49,890 nt of DNA from Escherichia phage Henu8: the sequence record NC_049853.1, one strand, 5' to 3'. Numbering within the stretch: the first letter of the stretch is position 1; each line of letters begins with the position of its first letter. The position numbers were made by a program, and so were the translations under genes. Under the pieces are notes generated by a model. It did not search any database. It worked only from the letters and a program-made list of their open reading frames with translations, and had not been told where the DNA came from. Positions 1,953-39,359 of this stretch are shown here, piece by piece.

Positions 1953-1998
1953 ATTATGCCGAATCCAGTCAGGCACGTTTTAACAAAAAGTGCTATTT
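1953..1998 (-). promoter_or_regulatory. conserved phage promoter motif + -10 (CATAAT)
   Basis: Minus-strand AAATAGCACTTTTTGTTAAAAC at 1977-1998, 18-nt spacer, CATAAT (revcomp of 1953-1958). Confidence 0.5.
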
Positions 1999-2247
1999 CT
2001 CAACTGGCGATTATTCAAACTATTCCATTAATCAGGAATAACAGGAATAACTCATTCGCGATCACCTGGATTGTGAGACTTTGAGTTTGGTCAATTTTAA
2101 TCAGTTGATTAACTTTTTGTGTGGAGGGGATAGAGAAACGCGGCCCTCTTGCGTCCTTTCCGGCAATCCTGGCGCGCGCATCTGTTATTTCTGTTCCCTG
2201 CGTTATCGCAATCAAGCCTCCGCACTTTTAGATAACAGAATCGGCGT

Positions 2248-2470
2248 TCATCAACAAAAAGAACAAAATAAAATTTATATATATACCCATAAAATCAATA
2301 AGTTAGTTATATATGTATTTATATTTGTTATTTACTGTTGAGCTTGTTCTATGGGTATATGGTGGAGTGGTATTGTTTGTGGTGATATGTATGTGTGATT
2401 GTATATTTTTTAATCAATTGTGATGTGTGGTGATTTTTGTATGTATATATATAGGTATGGGGCAATCCTC
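2248..2470. repeat. TA/TG-rich element, copy A (homologous to 31921-32150)
   Basis: Shared blocks CAAAAAG.AACAA.AATA, ATATATATAC, AAATCAATAAGTTAG, GGTGATTTTT; many GTGAT/TGTGA units; sits in a ~590-bp region without a convincing ORF. Confidence 0.55.
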
Positions 2471-2585
2471 CGTCAACCAAGTCAACAAGGTCATTTTTAA
2501 CAGAAAAACCAATTACTTAACTGAAGCATTTTGTTATCTTTAAACGCGCCACATTCCAAAAATTGTTATTAAAACACAAAATATA

Positions 2586-2614
2586 TTGACATGTATGAAA
2601 GGCAAGGCAATAAT
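2586..2614 (+). promoter_or_regulatory. sigma70-like promoter (TTGACA-17-AATAAT)
   Basis: TTGACA at 2586-2591, 17-nt spacer, AATAAT at 2609-2614, upstream of first plus-strand gene. Confidence 0.5.
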
Positions 2615-3925: not shown

Positions 3926-4111
3926 ATGATGAAATGCTTCACCACAAAAACAGAATGCGAAACCTATATCAAAGCCCAATATGGGGAATGTGCCTTTCAG
4001 GTTGGCGTAATATTCGCCTATCGCGTCAAGCCAATCGAAGCGAAGGCTTTTGGCGACCTGGTTGAAGGTTCATACATGGCCAGTAACGAGTTCGACGAGG
4101 TAACGCGTTGA
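3926..4111 (+). CDS. hypothetical protein (61 aa)
   Basis: ORF track; GAGGA SD. Confidence 0.55.
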   Translation: MMKCFTTKTECETYIKAQYGECAFQVGVIFAYRVKPIEAKAFGDLVEGSYMASNEFDEVTR

Positions 4112-4320
4112 TGAACTACATCCCAAAATGCCTCAGGGGGACACCTAAGGCAAAAACGAAGCCGCGCAGGCAGGCGATAAAGGAAGCCCAAGTGGCGGCG
4201 TTCAATCAGGCAATTAGCGTCGTGCTGGACAAGTGCCGAATTGAAAAATCTGAAAGGATGAAAGCGAACATGTACGCCGCAGTAAGCGAAATAGCGCGAC
4301 TGCGAGACAGTGTTAAATAG
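4108..4320 (+). CDS. hypothetical basic protein (70 aa)
   Basis: ORF track; ATGA overlap with upstream gene. Confidence 0.55.
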   Translation: MMNYIPKCLRGTPKAKTKPRRQAIKEAQVAAFNQAISVVLDKCRIEKSERMKANMYAAVSEIARLRDSVK

Positions 4321-4378
4321 CCAACCATGCCCCACTTCACGTTGGGCCAATAACTAATAACAGAGGTAAAATTCTGAA

Positions 4379-4422
4379 TAGCATTTTTTGTTAAAACTCA
4401 AAAACGATAACCAGGCATAATA
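4379..4422 (+). promoter_or_regulatory. conserved phage promoter motif + -10 (CATAAT)
   Basis: ATAGCATTTTTTGTTAAAAC at 4379-4398, 18-nt spacer, CATAAT 4417-4422; followed by leader ACATAGGGCGGC. Confidence 0.55.
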
Positions 4423-4474
4423 AATAACATAGGGCGGCGCGGCGTCGCCCACAAAACCAATCAGGAGAAACACC

Positions 4475-5362
4475 ATGTTAAAACTTGCTAACATTAAATT
4501 TCCGATCACCTTCGAATCTCGCGGCGTTGGTCACTTCATGTTTTCCGACGAAAATACATGCACTAAGTTTAACGAATACGGCAAGCCTGATGTTTCAACA
4601 ATGGAGATTGAGAACTTCATTGATGCGCATAACAAGCACTACAACTCACTCAAAGACTACGCCTACGCAATGCCAGGCTATACATGTTTCCACTACAAGC
4701 CATATAAAGGCCAGGTGCTTCCAGTTCGCTCACCAGAACGCGCAGAGATTCATACGGTCGAGATGAAAACCTGCGACTACAAGAAATTGTGGTGCTTAAA
4801 CGTGGATAATATCAAGTATCCGATTGTTTTTCATTGTGGCGGTTCAACAATCAGGTACACATCTCGCGACAATGGCGTTTATAGCGATGGTCAGAAATCC
4901 GAGTTGAAAGTTGATTTCTTTGTTAATGGTCATAACAAATTCAATCCACACAACGAAAAAGATAAGGTGTATTACGTGGAAGATATTACAAAACACTTGT
5001 TTGGAGAAACTCCATTCGGCGGCGGAAAGACGTCAATTCAACAAATCATTGGCGAGGAGATCCACAAGGCAGCCGTTAAAATGAAAGCGCCTGGAGGCTG
5101 GCGTATTGACAAGAGCGCCTTTGCCTATCAAGAAATCGTAACTCAGGGCGCAATTGAACATATGCCAGTTGCAGCCACGCTAAAAGGCGTCCAAATTGCT
5201 GATGGCGCATGGTTTGAATTAACGGCAAAACCAAAGACGATCGAGATTCATGATGACGTTGTTATTCTTCTTCTTCACTATGGCAGCGCGAAAAGCCGGA
5301 CGGTTGCAGGAGAGATCAGCATCAAGCGCGGAACGATGGTTAAGTGGAAGGTTAAAGTGTAA
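4475..5362 (+). CDS. hypothetical protein (295 aa)
   Basis: ORF track; AGGAGA SD; no motif recognised by eye. Confidence 0.65.
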   Translation: MLKLANIKFPITFESRGVGHFMFSDENTCTKFNEYGKPDVSTMEIENFIDAHNKHYNSLKDYAYAMPGYTCFHYKPYKGQVLPVRSPERAEIHTVEMKTCDYKKLWCLNVDNIKYPIVFHCGGSTIRYTSRDNGVYSDGQKSELKVDFFVNGHNKFNPHNEKDKVYYVEDITKHLFGETPFGGGKTSIQQIIGEEIHKAAVKMKAPGGWRIDKSAFAYQEIVTQGAIEHMPVAATLKGVQIADGAWFELTAKPKTIEIHDDVVILLLHYGSAKSRTVAGEISIKRGTMVKWKVKV

Positions 5363-5405
5363 ATAGCACGAATTGTTAAAACTCAAATGTGGGGCCAGGT
5401 ATAAT
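5363..5405 (+). promoter_or_regulatory. conserved phage promoter motif (variant) + -10 (TATAAT)
   Basis: ATAGCACGAATTGTTAAAAC following stop TAA; 17-nt spacer; TATAAT at 5400-5405. Confidence 0.5.
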
Positions 5406-5435
5406 GGCCTCACTTTCAACGAAGGGGATAAAGCG

Positions 5436-5681
5436 ATGATTATTGAACAGCATTTTCTTTGCGTTAAGAGCAATAGACCATTCTTCACGCCTGGAAAGAT
5501 GTACCAGGGCAAGAAGAATGGCAAGGACGGTCATTCTTATCACGTCCATTGCAATAACGGTAGCAAGTTCTACCTGAATGGATGCGGCGGCACTAAGATT
5601 ATGGCATTTGATCACGTAATTGCTGAATTTGAGCAAATCACCGACGCTGAATTTGAGGAAGTGAAAGATGGAAACAAATAA
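5436..5681 (+). CDS. hypothetical protein (81 aa)
   Basis: ORF 5373..5681 trimmed to ATG 5436 (AGGGGA SD; upstream ATG would sit inside promoter). Confidence 0.55.
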   Translation: MIIEQHFLCVKSNRPFFTPGKMYQGKKNGKDGHSYHVHCNNGSKFYLNGCGGTKIMAFDHVIAEFEQITDAEFEEVKDGNK

Positions 5682-5889
5682 GCGCGTTAAGCACAAGTTT
5701 ATTGATAATCATGGCGATGCACTTGAGGTATACAAGTTCGGCGATCGCGTGTTTATTGATGGCACGTTTCAAGGTGGAAGTATGCCGGATTTTAGGTCGA
5801 TACTCACCATTGACCAGGTGCGCAAGCTGGCGGATAAGTTAAATGATCTGGCAGATGAAATCGAATACAAGCAAATTCATTTTAATTGA
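5668..5889 (+). CDS. hypothetical protein (73 aa)
   Basis: ORF track; GAGGAAG SD; overlaps upstream gene. Confidence 0.55.
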   Translation: METNKRVKHKFIDNHGDALEVYKFGDRVFIDGTFQGGSMPDFRSILTIDQVRKLADKLNDLADEIEYKQIHFN

Positions 5890-5900
5890 TAGGTTTTATA

Positions 5901-6440
5901 ATGAAAAAATACGAATTTGAACTTTGGGGCAGTAAATACCATTTTTCCACGAGCAAGCCGATTGTTATCGTTGACCTGGACGGCACGTTATCAGACGGAA
6001 CGCATCGCTTGCACCTGCTTCCGAAAGAAGATTTGCACCTTACAGAAAGCTGGTCTGAGTTCAATAAGGCGGCTGTTGGCGATTCGCCGATTAAGAGCAC
6101 GGTTGCAGTGGTTAACGGTTTGTGGATGTCAGGATTTGCCATCGTTATCCTGACCGGACGCAGCGATGAAGTGATGGCTGACACCTGCGACTGGTTAAAT
6201 TATAACGGCATCAAGTACGATGCGTTAATCATGCGCCGCAAGGAAGACAACCGCAAAGACACAATCATCAAAGAAGAAGTATTGCGCGCTATCGGACTGG
6301 AAAACATTGTGTGCGCTTTTGATGATTCGCCGAACGTGGTTAAGCACTTCCGCAGCCTGGGAATCACAACCTATCAGGTCACGGAATACGACAAGCCACA
6401 TAATCATATCCAATCGCATGGCGTGGAGGAATTGAAATGA
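5901..6440 (+). CDS. HAD-superfamily phosphatase (polynucleotide 3'-phosphatase-like)
   Basis: N-terminal VIVDLDGTL (DxDGT HAD motif I), later GRS and terminal FDD motifs. Confidence 0.6.
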   Translation: MKKYEFELWGSKYHFSTSKPIVIVDLDGTLSDGTHRLHLLPKEDLHLTESWSEFNKAAVGDSPIKSTVAVVNGLWMSGFAIVILTGRSDEVMADTCDWLNYNGIKYDALIMRRKEDNRKDTIIKEEVLRAIGLENIVCAFDDSPNVVKHFRSLGITTYQVTEYDKPHNHIQSHGVEELK

Positions 6441-6622
6441 CCTGGTTACTTGTATTTTTAGTTGTTTTCTTTTATATTTCAGGATTATTCATCTTCCGCG
6501 CATTGGTTAAAGAGTGTGATTGCACTGATAAAGATCAGCCTCTTGTTCTGATGTTCTGGTTTGTGTGGTTTTGGGTGGCGCTTTACCAGATTGTACGGGA
6601 TGAAAGCGGCTTTAAGTGGTGA
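6437..6622 (+). CDS. small membrane protein (61 aa, two hydrophobic segments)
   Basis: ORF track; GGAGGA SD; LLVFLVVFFYISGLFIF and LVLMFWFVWFWVALY segments. Confidence 0.5.
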   Translation: MTWLLVFLVVFFYISGLFIFRALVKECDCTDKDQPLVLMFWFVWFWVALYQIVRDESGFKW

Positions 6623-6817
6623 TTCTTACTATAGCGCATTCATGCAGTGCGCTATGTTTGAGATAACAACATGAGATCATGAAGATGCGAAACTTCGAAA
6701 AAATCGTATCCAAAAAGAAGCGATACAGCTACCACGAGCACCAAGAGATGAATCAACGCTATCGCAATAAGCGCCAGCGCAAAGGTAAACATTACGGTAA
6801 ACATGGAGAAAATCAAT

Positions 6818-7408
6818 ATGAAACGCGACATTATCATTCTTAACGGACCGCCAGGAGTTGGCAAAGATACGCTTGCGGCATACTTAACGGGTCATCGTTA
6901 CGCAGCGGTTAAAGCGTCTTTTAAACAGCCTATGTTCGATATTGCATTCTCCATGCTTGGCGTTTACAGATATGACGAGTTCATTGATCTGTATAACGAC
7001 CGCGAGCAGAAAGAAAAGCCTCAAGCAATCTTGCAAGGCAAGTCTCCGCGACAATTCATGATCTGGATTAGTGAAGAAGTCATGAAGCCGGCTTTTGGCG
7101 AGCAATATTTTGGGAATCGCATGGTTGAGCAAGTACACGAGATGTACAGAGATTTGGCTGTTGTAATTAGCGATGGCGGATTCCCTGAAGAAATCAAGCC
7201 GCTCGTTAAGGCAGGCCATGAAGTTCACATTTGCCGACTGCATCGCGAAGGTTTCACGTTTGATGGCGATTCGCGAAACTATATTGACCTGAGCGGATAC
7301 CATCACCGCGTCAAGCATTACGACTTCACAATGACTGATGGCGAGCCAGAAAAGACTGTTGACGAGATCATCAAAACTGTCCAGTGGAAACACATTAAGA
7401 TCAAATAG
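6818..7408 (+). CDS. P-loop nucleotide kinase (dNMP kinase / polynucleotide kinase-like)
   Basis: Walker A GPPGVGKDT near N-terminus; GGAGA SD before ATG 6818 (trimmed from 6803). Confidence 0.6.
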   Translation: MKRDIIILNGPPGVGKDTLAAYLTGHRYAAVKASFKQPMFDIAFSMLGVYRYDEFIDLYNDREQKEKPQAILQGKSPRQFMIWISEEVMKPAFGEQYFGNRMVEQVHEMYRDLAVVISDGGFPEEIKPLVKAGHEVHICRLHREGFTFDGDSRNYIDLSGYHHRVKHYDFTMTDGEPEKTVDEIIKTVQWKHIKIK

Positions 7409-7448
7409 CACGAATTGCTAAAAGCGGGGCGCAATGCCTCGCTATAAT
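7405..7448 (+). promoter_or_regulatory. conserved phage promoter motif (variant) + -10 (TATAAT)
   Basis: AAATAGCACGAATTGCTAAAAG with embedded stop TAG; 18-nt spacer; TATAAT 7443-7448. Confidence 0.5.
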
Positions 7449-7479
7449 GCAAACACCAATCAACGAGAGGAATTGGAAC

Positions 7480-7881
7480 ATGTTAGAGCTTAACGACATT
7501 CGCGTTGGAACAAAATTTCGCGTAACCTGGGCAGATGAATATTGCGGCGTTAGCAGGGGGCAGGTTGTTACGGTGGATAGTATTTATCGCGGATGCAGCA
7601 AAGACTTTCGCCGCCCACGCATCAAGAATGGCTATATCATTACTCGCCGTTTTGGCTTTGATCATTATTGCGTAGTGGCGACTCAAGGAGTTTTGATTGA
7701 GCTTCAGCGAATCAGCGATCATCGCGGCTGTCATGTCAAAACAACGAAGATACCATCTCAGCGATCGCGATACGATGCGCGCAGGATGCGCAGGCTTGCA
7801 CGAAACGCGATCAAGTTCAAAAAGCATGGTGGTAACTTTTACCGAATGTACAAAGGGATTGCGCGAAATGCTGGAAAATAA
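7480..7881 (+). CDS. hypothetical basic protein (133 aa)
   Basis: ORF 7447..7881 trimmed to ATG 7480 (GAGAGGA SD); the upstream ATG overlaps the -10 box. Confidence 0.55.
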   Translation: MLELNDIRVGTKFRVTWADEYCGVSRGQVVTVDSIYRGCSKDFRRPRIKNGYIITRRFGFDHYCVVATQGVLIELQRISDHRGCHVKTTKIPSQRSRYDARRMRRLARNAIKFKKHGGNFYRMYKGIARNAGK

Positions 7882-7980
7882 CAACAACGCAACCAATCCA
7901 AAGCCGCCATTTGATTTTCATGAAATCATGATTGTGTTATTCTTGATTCTCTTAGTTGTTTATTCAGTGAGGGCCGCAAT

Positions 7981-8244
7981 ATGGTTTTTAATGCACTAAA
8001 ACGAATCTTTAAACCTGAATACCGGATCGTTGCTTGCACAGAATGTAAGATTTATTACCTGCAACGCCGCCGCGTTATTAGTGGGGATTGGGAATATCTT
8101 ACGGATGATGCTTTCGGCTTTTGGGCTATGGAGTTCAATAGCTACAGCGAAGCGCGTGAATACGCTAAAAAGTTGCACAAGTTCAGACCTTACAAGCTGC
8201 GTTTGCTGGTTGTCAAAAAATGCGATGTGTGGGATCACGAATGA
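7981..8244 (+). CDS. hypothetical protein (87 aa, Cys-x2-Cys pair)
   Basis: ORF track; GAGGG SD. Confidence 0.5.
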   Translation: MVFNALKRIFKPEYRIVACTECKIYYLQRRRVISGDWEYLTDDAFGFWAMEFNSYSEAREYAKKLHKFRPYKLRLLVVKKCDVWDHE

Positions 8245-8420
8245 AAAGAGTAATTATCATTTTTATTGCCCTTATCGCTGGTTGCTACCTGGCATATAAT
8301 TATAGCGGCATTGTTGAGTCAATCGGCGGGTTGATTATCTTCATGGCTGGCGGGTATGCTGGCTATTATGATGGATTCGAAAACGGAAAGCGTTACATGC
8401 TGACCGGAAAAAAGAAGTAA
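8241..8420 (+). CDS. small membrane protein or lipoprotein (59 aa)
   Basis: ATGA overlap with upstream stop; MKRVIIIFIALIAGCY (possible lipobox IAGC) and Gly-rich hydrophobic segment. Confidence 0.45.
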   Translation: MKRVIIIFIALIAGCYLAYNYSGIVESIGGLIIFMAGGYAGYYDGFENGKRYMLTGKKK

Positions 8421-8463
8421 TGTTAACCGCGCCGCTTCGGTGGCGCTAAAAGGAGGAAACAAA

Positions 8464-8751
8464 ATGGCTAAAAGCAATCGTAAAATGTTGATTAACGCAT
8501 TCGAAAAGGCGGCGTTTGAGCGTGGTTGGAATGACTCATTTCACACGGCAAACTGTATCCGCCGTTACGGATTCAAGAATTGCCGCTCATGGGCGCGTCA
8601 AATGGCTTCATGGTATGATCTTGATGCACATTACCTTGATATGGATTGCGCCCTGGTTGAAATGATTGAGCAGGCCGCACTAGAGGATCGACCATTAACG
8701 CAATCTGATTTTGACGATTTTGTGCGCGATGAAATCTATTACATGAGCTAA
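8464..8751 (+). CDS. hypothetical protein (95 aa)
   Basis: ORF 8440..8751 trimmed to ATG 8464 with AAAGGAGGAAA SD. Confidence 0.6.
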   Translation: MAKSNRKMLINAFEKAAFERGWNDSFHTANCIRRYGFKNCRSWARQMASWYDLDAHYLDMDCALVEMIEQAALEDRPLTQSDFDDFVRDEIYYMS

Positions 8752-8794
8752 TAGCACTTTTTGTTAAAACTTCCGCGAGGGCATTTGTTAAAGT
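8751..8794 (+). promoter_or_regulatory. conserved phage promoter motif + weak -10 (TAAAGT)
   Basis: TAATAGCACTTTTTGTTAAAAC with stop TAA embedded; 18-nt spacer; TAAAGT. Confidence 0.35.
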
Positions 8795-8826
8795 GTCCTC
8801 ATTGAAGCGAAGCAGAGGAAATCAAA

Positions 8827-9039
8827 ATGAAAATTCGAATCACCAGGGTTGACATTGACCGCAATGACGGAAGCATTACCCTTGAGCAATGCGGATTCAA
8901 AGTTGGTGACATTGTAGAGGTTGACGGATTCTTTCGCGATGGTTCTTACTGCGTGTTAGCAATCCGCAACACGGAAGAAATTCGAATCGGTGATAACATC
9001 GGCGTAAACCATGACGAATGCGAGGTAGTAGAGGAATGA
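8827..9039 (+). CDS. hypothetical protein (70 aa)
   Basis: ORF track; GAGGAAA SD. Confidence 0.55.
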   Translation: MKIRITRVDIDRNDGSITLEQCGFKVGDIVEVDGFFRDGSYCVLAIRNTEEIRIGDNIGVNHDECEVVEE

Positions 9040-9344
9040 TCACGATTAACCTTTCAGAAGAGCAAGCAAAGAAACTCCTGCATGCTGTAGGTTCTCGTGC
9101 ACTTTGCGGATCAACTGATGAAATGATGATTGATCATGAGGTTGCAAGGGAGCTTTTTACTCAGCTTGAGCAAAAATTCTCACCACGTCCGACTGACACG
9201 GCAGAAACTGCAAAATGGCTTGCTGAGAATGGATACACGGCTTTAAAAGTTCATAACTGGAAGCGAAAGAATGAAAGCATGGAGTCGGCATTTGCCAATT
9301 ACGCCAAATCAGTTGCAAAGCAGGTAACGGAGAAATATAAATGA
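9036..9344 (+). CDS. hypothetical protein (102 aa)
   Basis: ORF 9018..9344 trimmed to ATG 9036 (ATGA overlap with upstream stop). Confidence 0.5.
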   Translation: MITINLSEEQAKKLLHAVGSRALCGSTDEMMIDHEVARELFTQLEQKFSPRPTDTAETAKWLAENGYTALKVHNWKRKNESMESAFANYAKSVAKQVTEKYK

Positions 9345-9655
9345 TTTACATTCACTACTACCATATCGGGACAAACGAAAACAAGCAGGAGCGCAGAACA
9401 ATTTGTGACACGCTCGACGATGCGAAATCACAGCAACAGGTTTTAGGCGGTGTAATTCAGGCTTTTGAGCCAGTGGAAGACATAGAGTACCGAGAGCACT
9501 TGAAAGAGATTTTTGTTGATGAAATTTCATCACTAATCGACGACATGACAAATCACGGGCCTGGTTCTCCGTGGGAAGAAGCTGGATCGACGGAGTGGGA
9601 TTGTGCTAAGGTTGCAACGCTTAACAACTTTCGTGAGTTGCTCGACGATTTTTAA
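9341..9655 (+). CDS. hypothetical acidic protein (104 aa)
   Basis: ORF track; GGAGA SD; about 22 Asp/Glu versus 8 Lys/Arg by manual count. Confidence 0.55.
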   Translation: MIYIHYYHIGTNENKQERRTICDTLDDAKSQQQVLGGVIQAFEPVEDIEYREHLKEIFVDEISSLIDDMTNHGPGSPWEEAGSTEWDCAKVATLNNFRELLDDF

Positions 9656-9725
9656 TTAAAATTGAATGCCTCATACAGCGAACAGGACGCATTTTGACGA
9701 GGCATTTTTTAGGTAAGGTGATTCA

Positions 9726-9854
9726 ATGGATAACTACATAAAACCGTCGCAGTGGTGCGCACAGAAGCAAGAGGAAGCATTAGAGCGCGGAGATACTGAA
9801 ACAGCAATGCACTATTTCGAAATGTACAACTTGTGGAAGGGTAGAGGTCTGTAA
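9726..9854 (+). CDS. hypothetical small protein (42 aa)
   Basis: Manual: AAGGTG SD, ATG 9726, MDNYIKPSQWCAQKQEEALERGDTETAMHYFEMYNLWKGRGL; stop TAA overlaps ATG of next gene; below ORF-track cutoff. Confidence 0.45.
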   Translation: MDNYIKPSQWCAQKQEEALERGDTETAMHYFEMYNLWKGRGL

Positions 9855-10084
9855 TGTTTGGAATGAACGAAGCACAATTCAACGCTGCAAAACGCCAGGC
9901 TAAGAAGTGCGGCGAGGCAATGAAGGCGGATGTTGAAAAGCGCGGGAAGTATGTTGATGAAGTTATGAAGGGCATTATTGCCGAACATTACCAGCCAGTT
10001 GCGCCAATGCTGACAATTACCCAATTCATCTGGTTGTGTGGTTATCTTCGTGGTAGATGGGGAAACGCATTTGACCGCGAATGA
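9854..10084 (+). CDS. hypothetical protein (76 aa)
   Basis: ORF track; translationally coupled to upstream small ORF. Confidence 0.55.
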   Translation: MFGMNEAQFNAAKRQAKKCGEAMKADVEKRGKYVDEVMKGIIAEHYQPVAPMLTITQFIWLCGYLRGRWGNAFDRE

Positions 10085-10231
10085 TTGACAACGATTTCCT
10101 GATTGGTTAGCATATTCAGCGTTTACATAAGAGCGGCATTAGTGCCGAACGGGTGGCGCGGTTGCCACGCAACAACGGCGATATGCAGGTTTTTACCGTA
10201 AGACGTATCGCCTTTTTTTATAGGTGAATAT

Positions 10232-10465
10232 ATGGAAAAGTACAAATTAACTTTCATGTTTAATGGCATGGTGATGAATCCCTTAAATGGTTACGCTTGC
10301 AATAGCTTTTCTGTTACCGTTAATGAGGATGAAATTGATGATGATGGAAAATTCATTCGAATTGGTGAATACTTGTACCCAGTGCACAATATCAATTGCA
10401 TCAAACGCGAGATCGTAAAAGATGAAGTACAATGTAAGGTTGACGATCAGGCGAATGGGGCGTAA
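10232..10465 (+). CDS. hypothetical protein (77 aa)
   Basis: ORF track; AGGTGA SD; preceded by TTGACA-17-TAGCAT promoter-like sequence at 10087-10115. Confidence 0.55.
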   Translation: MEKYKLTFMFNGMVMNPLNGYACNSFSVTVNEDEIDDDGKFIRIGEYLYPVHNINCIKREIVKDEVQCKVDDQANGA

Positions 10466-10607
10466 TTGCTCGTCATGTAGACAGAGTTTTGAATGTGAGG
10501 TTGAGGCGCGCGGAGAGCTTGAGGCAGCAGCAAGAGCAAAAGAGTTGTCCGGCGCTAATCAAGACACTCACCAGTTTTCAATAGATCTTGTAAGGAAAAT
10601 ATCATGA
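10422..10607 (+). CDS. hypothetical Cys-rich small protein (uncertain start)
   Basis: ORF track; overlaps upstream gene by 44 nt, no clear SD; end coupled to next gene. Confidence 0.35.
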   Translation: MKYNVRLTIRRMGRNCSSCRQSFECEVEARGELEAAARAKELSGANQDTHQFSIDLVRKIS

Positions 10608-31534: not shown

Positions 31535-31566
31535 AAAAAGGGGCTTTCGCCCCTTTGTTTTTATTT
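31534..31566. terminator. bidirectional rho-independent terminator between convergent genes
   Basis: A-run, GGGGC-TTTC-GCCCC hairpin, T-run. Confidence 0.65.
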
Positions 31567-31792
31567 ACAGACTGCAATCAGCGTTTTTAAAGTTATCAAT
31601 ACTTACCCACTGAAAATTAAACGGATAGCCAGCCTTAACAAGAGTGCGTTCGCCAACTCGCTTTACTCCAAAAATAGCAACTGAATACTGCATACCGCTA
31701 TTTTCATAAATAGCCGTGCATTCACGCTTAGGCATATTTGCACATCCAGTCAGGGCAATGGCTGCAATCAAAACGGCGATTAACTTTTTCAT
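31565..31792 (-). CDS. cor: Cor-like superinfection-exclusion lipoprotein
   Basis: 75 aa; MKKLIAVLIAAIALTGC signal peptide plus lipobox; GAAGGAG SD; convergent with tail genes and driven by its own promoter. Confidence 0.55.
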   Translation of the reverse strand: MKKLIAVLIAAIALTGCANMPKRECTAIYENSGMQYSVAIFGVKRVGERTLVKAGYPFNFQWVSIDNFKNADCSL

Positions 31793-31823
31793 CTTGGTAT
31801 CTCCTTCGTTGTTGTTGGTTGCA

Positions 31824-31867
31824 ACTATACACGATCTTGCGATTGGCGTTTAGCAAAAAGTGCTATT
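31824..31867 (-). promoter_or_regulatory. conserved phage promoter motif (variant) + -10 (TATAGT) for the cor-like gene
   Basis: Minus-strand AATAGCACTTTTTGCTAAAC, 18-nt spacer, TATAGT. Confidence 0.5.
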
Positions 31868-31920
31868 CTTGTTCTTTTTGTTATCCTGTGTTCTCAAATC
31901 TGCGGAGTCTTAAATTTAGC

Positions 31921-32150
31921 TCAAAAAGTGAACAACAATAGAGCGCAATGCATACAGATAAATATATATACATACATATAAATCAATAAGTTAGTAGTAT
32001 ATATATTCATGTTTGTTCTTTATTGTTATCTATGTTTTGTGTGATTTTGTGTGTCTGGTGATTTTTCTGTGATTATGCATGTGTCAGTGGTTATGTGTGT
32101 CTATATATCTATATCCGGCGCAAATGGAGGAACAAGAGAACAAAAATACA
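31921..32150. repeat. TA/TG-rich element, copy B (homologous to 2248-2470)
   Basis: Same shared blocks as copy A (AAATCAATAAGTTAG, ATATATATAC, GGTGATTTTT, GTGAT units); in a ~500-bp region without an ORF. Confidence 0.55.
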
Positions 32151-32237
32151 ACAAAGGTATTTATCAATCACTTACATGTGAATTTTGTTATCCAATTCTC
32201 CTAGAACGTTGTTAGAACAGAAAAAACAAAATAACCA

Positions 32238-32265
32238 TTGACTAAACGCATTAAATAGCTAAAAT
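32238..32265 (+). promoter_or_regulatory. sigma70-like promoter (TTGACT-16-TAAAAT)
   Basis: TTGACT 32238-32243, TAAAAT 32260-32265, upstream of the exonuclease gene. Confidence 0.5.
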
Positions 32266-32294
32266 GCAGGCATACCAACCAACGAGGGAAAATC

Positions 32295-38885: not shown

Positions 38886-39359
38886 TTAGCAATTAGTGCT
38901 TTCAGGTTTATACAGGAATCCGCCAGGCTCATAATCTGACATTCTTACCACTCGCAACATTTCACGCTTATCACATCTCTTTGTGAGCGGTTTGCCATTG
39001 GAATCAAATCGCAGATCTGGACGGCAGAATGACGCGCGATAGCCTTGACAGCCATACTTTTTGTAATCGTTATGCACCTTTTGAGCGCCAGCGGCTGAAA
39101 TCATACCGCGAACTCGCCACTGATTTACAGTTTGCTGGCTAACGTTAAGACGTTTTGCCATTGCTGACACACTTCCGTAATACTCAATAAGGATGTCAAG
39201 TCTCGCTTTTAGTCCGGCGCGCACTTCATCTTTTAAAACATAGTATCCAGTAGGGCGCTTGCGCTTCTTCTTATCTTTACCCCGTCGAGTTCCGTTATTG
39301 CCATTAATTGTGCGCTTGTCAATCTTGCCAGTTGATACTGCGATTCGCTGTTCTTTCAT
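38886..39359 (-). CDS. HTH DNA-binding protein
   Basis: 157 aa; GGAGA SD; helix-turn-helix-like AKRLNVSQQTVNQW; basic Lys/Arg-rich N-terminus. Confidence 0.55.
   Translation of the reverse strand: MKEQRIAVSTGKIDKRTINGNNGTRRGKDKKKRKRPTGYYVLKDEVRAGLKARLDILIEYYGSVSAMAKRLNVSQQTVNQWRVRGMISAAGAQKVHNDYKKYGCQGYRASFCRPDLRFDSNGKPLTKRCDKREMLRVVRMSDYEPGGFLYKPESTNC

Follow-up and report, generated by a model that had tools for sequence, protein, structure and literature searches.

In pSC101, R6K gamma and lambda ori, an easily melted AT-rich segment is combined with an IHF bend site inside or next to it and replicon-specific short repeats, and transcription from nearby activates both lambda ori and oriC (gidA). 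T1, which the phage described below resembles, belongs to the original set of seven T phages. Papers on T1-like genomes state that no replication origin was found (PMC11447400; PMC7718038). Bacillus phage SPP1 has two origins, built of short direct repeats together with an AT-rich unwinding element and served by a single initiator, gp38, and its oriR has been proposed to trigger the switch to concatemer synthesis, a switch that uses an exonuclease, an annealing protein and an SSB (PMC6316719). Also, replication of the satellite phage P4 needs two cis regions, ori and crr, located several kb apart and sharing a short type-1 repeat, TGTTCACC, in both orientations (6 in ori and 10 in crr), according to the annotation of the P4 record.

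The window, that is, the whole stretch of 49,890 nucleotides from Escherichia phage Henu8 (NC_049853.1), belongs to a Hanrivervirus-like T1-like phage of the Drexlerviridae and contains two copies, A and B, of a non-coding element, in direct orientation and 29.7 kb apart (Table 1). Smith-Waterman alignment of copy A (2248-2470) with copy B (31921-32150) gives a score of 93 over about 131 columns, of which 101 are identical (77% identity), against 22.9±2.6 for dinucleotide shuffles (z about 27) and 26.8±4.8 for shuffles that keep the local 40-bp composition (z 13.9). The similarity proposed in the initial annotation is thus far above shuffled controls, and every string it listed for both copies is at its place: AAATCAATAAGTTAG occurs exactly twice in the window (2292 and 31980), and ATATATATAC, GGTGATTTTT and the left edge CAAAAAG..AACAA are common to A and B. 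However, the proposed length of about 230 bp is too short, the colinear unit running in the same block order from about 2250 to at least 2538 in A and from about 31920 to at least 32192 in B; it probably extends up to the promoters. The ATTTTGTTATC box and the strong sigma70-like promoter announced downstream of each copy were both recovered, the boxes at 2528 and 32182 and the promoters by scan. A scan of both strands of the whole window detects no third copy.

The same annotation had placed both copies in ORF-free regions of about 500 bp. Mechanical ORFs do exist there (2015..2215 on the minus strand, 2081..2341 and 31738..31941 on the plus strand), but the annotated ORFs over the element are judged spurious, and a coding role was rejected for them since relatives that are nearly identical disagree on where they start and end; no codon-periodic variation is obvious by eye in the alignment of those relatives. 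The non-coding span around A is about 1916-2650, since the left gene starts at 1915 and not at 1954. No plasmid or E. coli chromosomal homologue of the element was found, and a structured non-coding RNA was rejected, as no Rfam model matches anywhere in the window at gathering thresholds; a sigma70 consensus scan also found no promoter-like site reading into A or B. The combination of an IHF site and inverted arms could recall an attP-like site or a transposon end. This was rejected as well, the copies being direct repeats 29.7 kb apart; the feature annotation of the T1-like records consulted shows no integrase or transposase, a statement on annotation only.

Table 1. Features in and around copies A and B of the duplicated element and the candidate binding protein (window coordinates).
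Feature	Position	Strand	Description
21-nt T1-like intergenic repeat, region A	1977..1997	-	AATAGCACTTTTTGTTAAAAC read leftwards; -10-like CATAAT 1953-1958; leftward promoter of region A
Conserved block, beside A only, not duplicated	2027..2140	.	AGGAATAAC twice; palindrome TTAATCAGTTGATTAA 2097-2112; GATTG/TGAG-rich
Copy A core	2248..2470	+	TA-rich core and T/G-rich stretch; aligns to 31921-32150, score 93, z 14-27
A left arm	2252..2270	+	CAACAAAAAGAACAAAATA, AACAA/GAACAA motifs; makes, with 2308-2333, an imperfect inverted repeat enclosing the IHF site
A candidate DNA-unwinding element	2265..2324	.	Least stable 60-bp duplex of the window (nearest-neighbour dG, rank 1)
A distal IHF-consensus site	2293..2305	+	AATCAATAAGTTA (consensus WATCAANNNNTTR), perfect; A/T-rich 5' flank
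A TGTT motifs	2325..2348	+	TTGTT 2325, CTGTT 2335, TTGTT 2344; about 10 bp spacing
A T/G-rich stretch	2350..2440	+	Almost C-free: T 49%, G 31%, C 1%
A right flank	2464..2486	+	AATCCTCCG, then two GTCAAC 9 bp apart; invariant in 10/10 relatives
A proximal IHF-like site	2507..2519	+	AACCAATTACTTA, one mismatch to consensus; centre about 105 bp upstream of predicted transcription start
A box common to B	2528..2538	+	ATTTTGTTATC; core TTTGTTATC kept in 10/10 relatives
Sigma70 promoter P_A	2586..2614	+	TTGACA-17-AATAAT; for DUF7174 gene starting at 2651; scan
21-nt repeat, region B	31848..31867	-	Drives cor leftwards; -10-like TATAGT 31824-31829
Copy B core	31920..32156	+	Left arm CTCAAAAAGTGAACAACAATAG, TA-rich core, T/G-rich stretch, GAACA repeats
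B candidate unwinding element	31952..32011	.	Second least stable 60-bp duplex of the window (rank 2)
B distal IHF-consensus site	31981..31993	+	AATCAATAAGTTA, perfect
B TGTT motifs	32009..32036	+	Pattern starts 32009, 32023, 32032; roughly 10 bp spacing
B T/G-rich, C-poor stretch	32035..32102	+	T 53%, G 29%; GTGAT/GTGTC units
B right flank	32115..32156	+	CCGGCGCAAAT, then GGAACAAGA-GAACAAAAA-TACAACAAAG, 9-bp tandem AACA repeats
B proximal IHF-consensus site	32162..32174	+	TATCAATCACTTA; centre about 104 bp upstream of predicted start
B box common to A	32182..32192	+	ATTTTGTTATC
UP-like A-rich tract and sigma70 promoter P_B	32215..32265	+	GAACAGAAAAAACAAAATA; hexamers TTGACT-16-TAAAAT at 32238-32265; for recE-erf-ssb; scan
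Candidate binder of short repeats	38886..39359	-	Cro/YdaS-type helix-turn-helix protein next to primase; Pfam, PHROG and PDB matches

Nearest-neighbour calculations place the two cores at the extreme of duplex stability. The 60-bp minimum of A has a dG of -0.959 kcal/mol per step and that of B of -0.986, against a window mean of -1.362±0.08 and a third-ranked segment of -1.09. Moreover, when all segments of a genome are ranked from the least stable upwards, the A and B cores take ranks 1 and 2 in all six genomes compared (the window, TLS, T1, tonnikala, Rtp and RAD2), some 5 SD from the genome mean and clearly apart from rank 3. An AT-rich segment of markedly low stability, as expected of an origin, is therefore present in both cores, and a predicted IHF site in or next to the AT-rich region, frequent though not universal in origins, is present at both copies. 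Perfect matches to the IHF consensus start at 2293, 31981 and 32162, with chance probabilities in local shuffles of 0.075 for the site in A and 0.003 for two or more sites in B. The distal site of A is invariant in 10 Hanrivervirus sequences, and at that of B the consensus positions are kept in other Tempevirinae while the N positions vary (TAAG, TGAG, TAGT, TGGT). As for the proximal position, copy A of tonnikala has a perfect consensus there (AATCAACAACTTG), and most genera carry an IHF consensus with variable N positions 133-141 bp upstream of recE, inverted in T1-type phages. Imperfect inverted repeats surround the distal site in both copies. Nonetheless, the DNA fold energy has a z of -2.1 in A, which is marginal, and of -1.05 in B, which is not significant, so a cruciform or dyad symmetry was not used as evidence.

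The A/B pair is present in six out of six Drexlerviridae genera examined, with a z value for within-genome similarity of 13.9 in the window and of 12.5, 9.9, 12.0, 36.6 and 45.7 in the other five genomes. Furthermore, the within-genome A/B scores of T1, Rtp and RAD2 (66, 141 and 162) exceed the best cross-genus orthologue scores among the six genomes (58, 58 and 68). Since this holds against every cross-genus orthologue, each copy being closer to its partner than to its counterpart in other subfamilies, the comparison indicates that A and B evolve in concert in these three phages, as expected of two sites read by one co-evolving protein. Element A has a mean pairwise identity of 0.952 among 8 close Hanriverviruses, against 0.88-0.90 at the third codon positions of the flanking genes, and of 0.867 to the BEK7/A134 lineage, for which the flanking coding sequence gives 0.55-0.62. 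A retained function, as suggested initially, is strongly supported by the presence of the pair in six genera and by a conservation of A above that of flanking third codon positions. For these comparisons, GenBank records were used in place of IMG/VR, where an exact 15-mer scan returned mostly unrelated chance matches and a 37-nt pattern only 8 stretches. Retrieval of copy A anchored on the DUF7174 protein gave only 2 loci. Relatives of T1 are abundant, the recE linked to B being carried by more than 1,200 phage records.

Smaller blocks inside the element are conserved too. The TGTT arrangement of A recurs in B and is kept across Tempevirinae, and the GAACA...AACA pattern of B is found in 18 of 19 aligned Tempevirinae sequences, the exception (L048) having an insertion there. 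Phylogenetic footprinting confirms both promoters, with hexamers kept and spacers diverged: in BEK7/A134, P_A retains TTGACA and ATAAT around a diverged spacer, and P_B with its A-rich tract is kept across 18 Tempevirinae, the TLS equivalents being P01 and P51, respectively. In all genera, the position of B is immediately upstream of recE-erf-ssb, and in Webervirus, where the recE module is inverted, B travels with the module and ends beside the primase gene.

The repeated GTGAT/TGTGA units of the initial annotation are poor iteron candidates because the T/G-rich segment holding them is the most variable part of both A and B between genera; in A this stretch also contains a 28-nt direct repeat (2378/2426). 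Better candidates flank the core, namely GAACAA, GTCAAC and TGTTATC in the window and GTAAGAT, TGTAACA and others in relatives. Within A/B are located 12 of the 16 genomic copies of GTAAGAT in RAD2, all six of TGTAACA in T1 and, for TLS, 4 of 8 copies of GTGAACA/TGTTCAC, these at both A and B. TCCGCGGA of Rtp occurs in A/B only, about 10 GTAAGAT are present at B in 22 of 22 Webervirus loci, and TLS and tonnikala have GTGAACA/GTTAACA repeats at the position of the A right flank. In the window, AGAACAA and GATAACA are enriched at A/B with p about 1e-6 (1e-6 to 1e-7 for AACA-type motifs), these flanking repeats (GAACAA, two GTCAAC and TGTTATC) being short, degenerate and A-rich and, as iterons, weak. 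Judged from its sequence matches, the Cro/YdaS-type protein encoded next to the primase is a candidate to bind such repeats. The class of its recognition helix shifts with the repeat motif across lineages, a correspondence confounded by phylogeny.

Of the described systems, oriL/oriR of SPP1 shares several features. Both cases correspond to a pac-type siphovirus of about 44-50 kb with two distant, similarly organised but non-identical copies, one of those of SPP1 lying in a long intergenic region; with regard to the SPP1 concatemer switch, recE-erf-ssb lies immediately downstream of B in Henu8. However, SPP1 shows no sequence similarity to the Henu8 element, which has IHF-type sites, and oriL is contained in the gene of its initiator, in contrast to the two T1-type copies, each of which is intergenic and located upstream of early promoters. 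Also, Pfam and PHROGs detect no gp38-, gp39- or DnaB-type family among five replication-associated proteins of the window (a P4-alpha-type primase, an SF2 helicase, a DUF3987 helicase, the Cro-like helix-turn-helix protein and DUF7174), and SPP1 is consequently an analogue, Henu8 not being a member of that system. In the case of P4, alpha and the window primase are homologous in the primase domain (residues 26-262 of alpha, E 1e-11), but the T1-type primase is without the helicase and origin-binding domains of alpha, and the DUF3987 helicase has no detectable similarity to alpha or to any solved structure. The crr of P4 consists of two 120-bp tandem repeats with no promoter attached. P4-type iterons were rejected for the window, which has one TGTTCACC (11153) and four TGTTCAC, one of these in B, without any cluster. 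Unlike the plasmid iteron origins, the window lacks long (17-22 bp) regularly spaced iterons, neither core contains a DnaA box, and no plasmid matches the element in sequence. As in the IHF-dependent upstream activating regions that show supercoiling-induced duplex destabilisation (ilvPG UAS, lambda pL and Mu Pe), a predicted IHF site of Henu8 falls within a destabilised AT-rich stretch that lies upstream of a sigma70 promoter, another being placed some 100 bp from the start, also upstream. Nevertheless, the Henu8 core is 257-293 bp from the -35 rather than about 90 bp, and the region is much larger, duplicated and provided with lineage-specific repeats.

The reading we favour, tentatively and with confidence a little short of even, is that A and B are paired origin-type cis modules, each with an unwinding element, IHF sites and iterons, analogous to oriL/oriR. 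The TA-rich, easily melted core would be the DNA-unwinding element, bent by IHF bound inside it, and the flanking short repeats together with the C-poor T/G-rich strand would load a sequence-specific phage protein and then the phage primase and helicases. Given that each module lies between divergent promoters, early transcription leaving both sides could underwind the core. The role of early origin would fall to copy A, the one beside pac, and copy B, upstream of recE-erf-ssb, would be a second or late origin or an auxiliary initiator-binding site, comparable to oriR of SPP1 or crr of P4, which could help to switch replication to recombination-dependent concatemer synthesis. An oriC-like, DnaA-dependent origin was rejected, as there is no DnaA box within one mismatch inside either core and no GATC cluster, each non-coding region having a single GATC outside the core (genome average 5.5 per kb). 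No recognisable initiator was found either, the search for homologues of the origin-binding or helicase domains of P4 alpha being negative. The cumulative GC skew has its minimum at A, which coincides with a flip in gene orientation and was discarded as uninformative.

A broader proposal, which we regard as rather unlikely, is that all Drexlerviridae share an undescribed two-site replication control, in which homologous unwinding element/IHF/iteron modules co-evolve with a phage specificity protein, for which the Cro-like protein encoded beside the primase is one possibility. The pac-side module would be the early origin and the recE-side module a late origin or fork barrier, coupling firing, immediate-early transcription and the concatemer switch. 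We found no prior description of the A/B pair in the literature, where an earlier mention is possible in the genome papers of T1 (Roberts 2004) and Rtp (Wietzorrek 2006) and in a P4 review.

The same modules could instead be the upstream control of two promoters, the principal rightward ones of the immediate-early class, with P_A driving the early small-gene cluster and P_B driving recE-erf-ssb, a reading that we consider possible although on the unlikely side. IHF bound near -105 and in the easily melted core would bend the DNA and transmit to the promoter a destabilisation that depends on supercoiling, in the manner of the ilvPG UAS or IHF-stimulated lambda pL, and the lineage-specific repeats would be operators for a phage regulator, e.g. 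the Cro-like protein, that later shuts the promoters off. Against an origin, each module ends in one of very few conserved consensus sigma70 promoters, the TLS authors having found only three, two of them at A and B. Nonetheless, TLS has a third consensus early promoter (P57, serving the regulator and the primase) that lacks such a module. Between the -35 and the proximal IHF-like site the spacing hardly changes, being 79 bp in A and 76 bp in B, but for the distal IHF site and TA core it is not conserved (293 bp in A against 257 bp in B), and other lineages show 30-bp insertions or deletions. The A/B similarity of tonnikala runs up to the promoter, reaching the UP-like tract, and the TGTAACA motifs of T1, in our reading, overlap with promoter elements in region A, an operator-like placement that fits a transcriptional role at least as well; in region B of both RAD2 and T1, on the contrary, the repeats flank the AT core and not the promoter. 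The sole DNA-binding candidate identified is a Cro/YdaS-type regulator. However, about 250 bp of additional conserved DNA, with both global stability minima in six genera, exceeds what known upstream activating regions need. Computation leaves a replication origin and an early-promoter platform both viable and does not separate them; A and B are the best candidates so far for the unmapped replication origins of T1-like phages or else for early-promoter control regions. Two precise sites of about 300 bp are thereby available for origin testing, with the lineage-specific repeat variants as a natural set for specificity swaps, and even a transcriptional role would make the pair the control regions of the immediate-early promoters. 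The pair is also of use for annotating and engineering T1-like phages, including the removal of spurious ORFs across the element.

Two further explanations have little probability. That the pair is a recombination or packaging signal, i.e. entry sites of RecE/Erf or RecA for concatemers or a terminase-binding second pac, is improbable. The constant position of B upstream of recE-erf-ssb and its movement with that module would suit it, as would a T/G-rich, almost C-free top strand and the sequence exchange between copies that concerted evolution reveals, yet the T/G-rich part is the least conserved between genera, no Chi or Chi-like sites are present and no requirement for specific sites is known for recombination of the Erf and RecE types. 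Copy A is about 170-200 bp from the position matching the T1/TLS pac end. However, the initial suggestion of a packaging signal is not supported for the duplicated part, because the pac ends of T1 and TLS map to the block at about 2027-2140, which is absent from B. This block corresponds, by eye alignment, to the start of the T1 and TLS genome maps: the T1 record has a terminal repeat at 1-2800, AGATTT, assigned as pac in TLS, opens the TLS record, and both starts match about 2060-2125, left of element A. The identity of the block is 0.963 among close relatives and 0.945 to BEK7/A134, and restriction mapping of TLS gave a single pac fragment. Less plausible still is a similarity without function, in which occasional gene conversion maintains the likeness of two AT-rich spacers upstream of promoters. 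Intergenic DNA of high AT content is indeed common ahead of promoters, and an active phage-encoded recombination system could homogenise repeats, but six genera retain both copies even though the genes around them are highly mosaic, their conservation is above that of synonymous sites, and they consist of discrete blocks in a conserved order, in which IHF consensus positions persist while N positions change.

Finally, one copy of the 21-nt intergenic direct repeat of T1-like phages (aaATAGCACnnnTTGnTAAAA in the TLS paper) is located at the left edge of each region. This is a different element that is not part of the duplicated unit, with about 17 copies per genome, upstream of genes and oriented with transcription. 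At B, the leftward cor promoter together with P_B makes a divergent-promoter region. Three distinct signals share one large non-coding region: the duplicated element, the pac block and the 21-nt promoter repeats.

The window comprises an essentially complete T1-like phage genome, and the regions around elements A and B, the two TA/TG-rich non-coding elements considered here, share 93-97% identity with the Escherichia phages JLBYU41, JLBYU09, grams and other Hanrivervirus (Drexlerviridae, Tempevirinae). Element A occupies a large divergent non-coding region between a leftward small-gene cluster and a rightward cluster, whereas element B lies between cor (leftward) and recE-erf-ssb (rightward). 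All the shared strings listed in the initial annotation, which had proposed a duplication of about 230 bp with copies some 29.7 kb apart, are found in the window. The best local alignment of A and B reaches a score of 93, with 101 of 131 columns identical, compared with 22.9 ± 2.6 for dinucleotide shuffles and 26.8 ± 4.8 when local 40-bp composition is kept. A and B repeat in the same direction at a distance of 29,688 bp, and searching both strands of the full window gave no third copy. The duplication therefore stands, but its extent had been drawn too short: colinearity goes on rightward, first through another IHF-like site, then through the ATTTTGTTATC box, and heads for the promoters. The sigma70-like promoters proposed after each copy are supported by footprinting, the hexamers being kept and the spacers diverged, and their counterparts in TLS, whose authors accept only three sigma70 promoters, are P01 and P51.

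Features of the two regions, the numbered ones in left-to-right order, and other sites in the window
Feature	Region A	Region B	Elsewhere
Non-coding region	1955-2650	31793-32294	
Element	2248-2470	31921-32150	
Least stable 60 bp (core)	2265-2324	31952-32011	
1, AACAA/GAACAA-rich left arm	present	present	
2, alternating TA run	present	present	
3, perfect IHF core consensus	AATCAATAAGTTA	AATCAATAAGTTA	
4, second TA run	present	present	
5, TGTT motifs, spacing about 10 bp	three	three	
6, T/G-rich, nearly C-free stretch, 70-90 bp, in both copies	C = 1%		
7, further TA run	present	present	
8, GC-containing boundary	AATCCTCCG (2464-2472)	CCGGCGCAAAT	
9, tandem short repeats	GTCAAC, twice	GGAACAAGA-GAACAAAAA-TACAACAAA	
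10, second IHF-type site, centre about 105 bp upstream of predicted start	present	present	
11, box	ATTTTGTTATC	ATTTTGTTATC	
12, A-rich tract	present	present	
13, near-consensus sigma70 promoter	present	present	
Leftward neighbour	start 1915	cor, 31565-31792	
Rightward neighbour	DUF7174, 2651	recE-erf-ssb, from 32295	
Pac-like block	2027-2140 (approximate)		
Tandem AGGAATAAC pair	2034-2051		
16-bp palindrome TTAATCAGTTGATTAA	2097-2112		
21-nt repeat AATAGCACTTTTTGTTAAAAC	1984	31854	629, 1135, 3377, 3840, 4377, 8750, 17273, 21033, 39372, 41890, 42931, 48512, 49188
Cro-like regulator			38886-39359 (-)

By nearest-neighbour energies, the A and B cores are the two least stable 60-bp segments of the window and also the least stable at a segment size of 150 bp, lying about 5 SD off the mean with a clear gap to rank 3. 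They are likewise the two stability minima in TLS, T1, tonnikala, Rtp and RAD2, and in 52 further IMG/VR loci that extend into the region upstream of recE, the distance between the least stable 60-mer and the regulator gene is constant within a lineage. The window has ten perfect WATCAANNNNTTR matches, four of them in the two non-coding regions; in shuffles that keep local composition, at least one IHF match arises in A with probability 0.075 and at least two arise in B with probability 0.003. Both predicted IHF sites retain their consensus positions in other genera but vary at the N positions (TAAG, TGAG, TAGT and TGGT in the distal site); the proximal site is inverted in T1-type phages, and the distal one is imperfect or absent in some lineages (TLS, T1).

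Equivalent region pairs were taken from TLS (Tlsvirus), tonnikala (Warwickvirus), T1 (Tunavirus), Rtp (Rtpvirus) and Klebsiella phage RAD2 (Webervirus), and A-B similarity is significant in each (z = 12.5, 12.0, 9.9, 36.6 and 45.7, respectively), the A/B pair being a family trait. Moreover, T1, Rtp and RAD2 score higher between their own two copies (66, 141 and 162) than against the corresponding region of any other genome in the set of six (58, 58 and 68 at most), so that the two copies evolve in concert. Among eight close Hanriverviruses, element A shows a mean pairwise identity of 0.952, compared with 0.88-0.90 at third codon positions of flanking genes; against the BEK7/A134 lineage the values are 0.867 for element A and 0.55-0.62 for flanking genes. 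Across 19 Tempevirinae sequences, discrete blocks of copy B are conserved, but the intervening T/G-rich segment is not. A purely neutral origin of the A/B similarity is unlikely, and no similar sequence was found in plasmid or E. coli genome collections. In RAD2, where the recE module is inverted, B travelled along with its orientation relative to recE unchanged, and for this reason it adjoins the primase gene, which element B and its promoter directly follow. The Webervirus inversion relative to T1-type genomes covers the tail fibre-ssb-erf-recE block (RAD2 4063-10594), and the RAD2 recE promoter is of the 21-nt-repeat type (gATAGCACTTTTTGACT...TATACT).

Enriched words in the window (AGAACAA, GAACAA and GATAACA/TGTTATC; p about 1e-6 to 1e-7) are short and degenerate, whereas lineage-specific repeat sets are far clearer in relatives. 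Twelve of the 16 genomic copies of the Webervirus GTAAGAT in RAD2 lie within A/B, and every one of 22 Webervirus loci carries about 10 at B; all six T1 copies of TGTAACA lie within A/B, and Rtp has TCCGCGGA and GTTAC(G/A)C, spaced 10-11 bp apart. The sequence AATCCTCCG is present in 7-8 copies round the B core of one metagenomic lineage (IMGVR_UViG_3300045988_054655) and once in the window, at the right boundary of A, while the other three boundaries have CCTCCG-like variants nearby; given this copy number and these positions, it may be another binding motif. The repeat-motif class shifts in step with the recognition helix of a Cro/YdaS-type helix-turn-helix regulator whose gene lies beside that of the primase. 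This covariation points to the regulator as a putative repeat reader but is a lead and not evidence, since any lineage-specific protein would give the same pattern. In this 'transcriptional regulator' and its homologues from five other phage sequences, RAD2 among them, the basic N-terminus (IDKRTINGNNGTRRGKDKK) and a Cys-containing C-terminal region are conserved, whereas the recognition helix of the Cro/YdaS-like helix-turn-helix differs between lineages.

Initiator-dependent origins typically combine a strongly destabilised AT-rich core, an internal IHF bend site, replicon-specific short repeats to either side, a strand-asymmetric flank and a position between divergent promoters. The make-up of A and B corresponds to this, with predicted IHF sites and, in the window, short and degenerate repeats; transcription from the promoters on both sides would underwind the core. 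Based on this composition, on the resemblance to SPP1 and P4, and on the replication origin not being found in T1-like genome papers (PMC11447400; PMC7718038), we tentatively favor A and B as paired origin-type modules, a functional reading that we hold at slightly less than even confidence. The similar, co-evolving copies recall oriL/oriR of SPP1, where direct repeats accompany an AT-rich unwinding element, gp38 binds both origins, and oriR is the proposed trigger of the switch to recombination-dependent replication (PMC6316719). They likewise recall the two-region ori/crr system of P4, whose alpha protein has a primase domain in common with the window primase; a P4-type iteron cluster is absent from the element. 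Origins of this kind would be a further case of a known type and not a new one. No prior description of the pair was found in a literature search that did not extend to the original T1 and Rtp genome papers. DnaA boxes, GATC clusters and Chi sites are absent from the A/B element, which has no Rfam match. The window contains 272 GATC sites (5.5 per kb versus 3.9 expected for a random tetramer), with none in either element and one per non-coding region, outside the core.

The main rival, held at lower confidence than the origin reading, would see A and B as operator-bearing control regions of the two immediate-early promoters, dependent on IHF and supercoiling. It agrees with the tight linkage of modules to promoters, with the constant spacing of the proximal IHF-like site and with TGTAACA being placed like an operator in T1 region A; however, the core-to-promoter distance varies, a third early promoter carries no module, and the conserved region is very large. 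Since iterons frequently serve as operators too, origin and promoter-control roles are not mutually exclusive. Recombination or packaging, also put forward in the initial annotation, is an unlikely role, and as the pac site the element was rejected: the T1 and TLS maps start in a separate, very conserved block, present beside A only. From this match, the block probably contains pac; the T1 record has a terminal repeat at 1-2800, and the TLS record starts with the assigned pac AGATTT. Block identity is 0.945-0.963, above that of neighboring genes, and the center of its palindrome is variable among relatives.

A coding sequence was rejected, the element having no consistent ORF. GenBank records of relatives place hypothetical proteins at 175-501, 175-501 and 175-390 (about 1964-2290 in the window), running across the pac-like block into the left part of A, with lengths that differ among close relatives; these ORFs are probably spurious because their boundaries are inconsistent between near-identical genomes. 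The 21-nt T1-like intergenic repeat was also rejected as the identity of the element, one copy being at the left edge of each region as part of leftward promoters. A -10-like hexamer (mostly CATAAT) follows nearly every copy, beginning in those checked 22 nt past the end of TTGTTA, a gap too long for TTGTTA to be a normal -35, and a GC-rich inverted repeat, e.g. GCCAGGtgcaaatCCTGGC, is often present in the spacer. This sequence arrangement suggests phage-factor-dependent promoters; in the TLS paper, the role of the repeat stands as an open question. Beside A (1913-1958), the mechanical ORF start at 1954 falls within the -10-like CATAATG of the leftward promoter, and the true start of the leftward gene is the downstream ATG at 1915, with AGGGGA just before it. 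Finally, the C. jejuni host given for about 20 'UNVERIFIED Campylobacter phage' records (MG0656xx) looks doubtful; in both regions, these sequences match E. coli Hanriverviruses at 90-96% identity.
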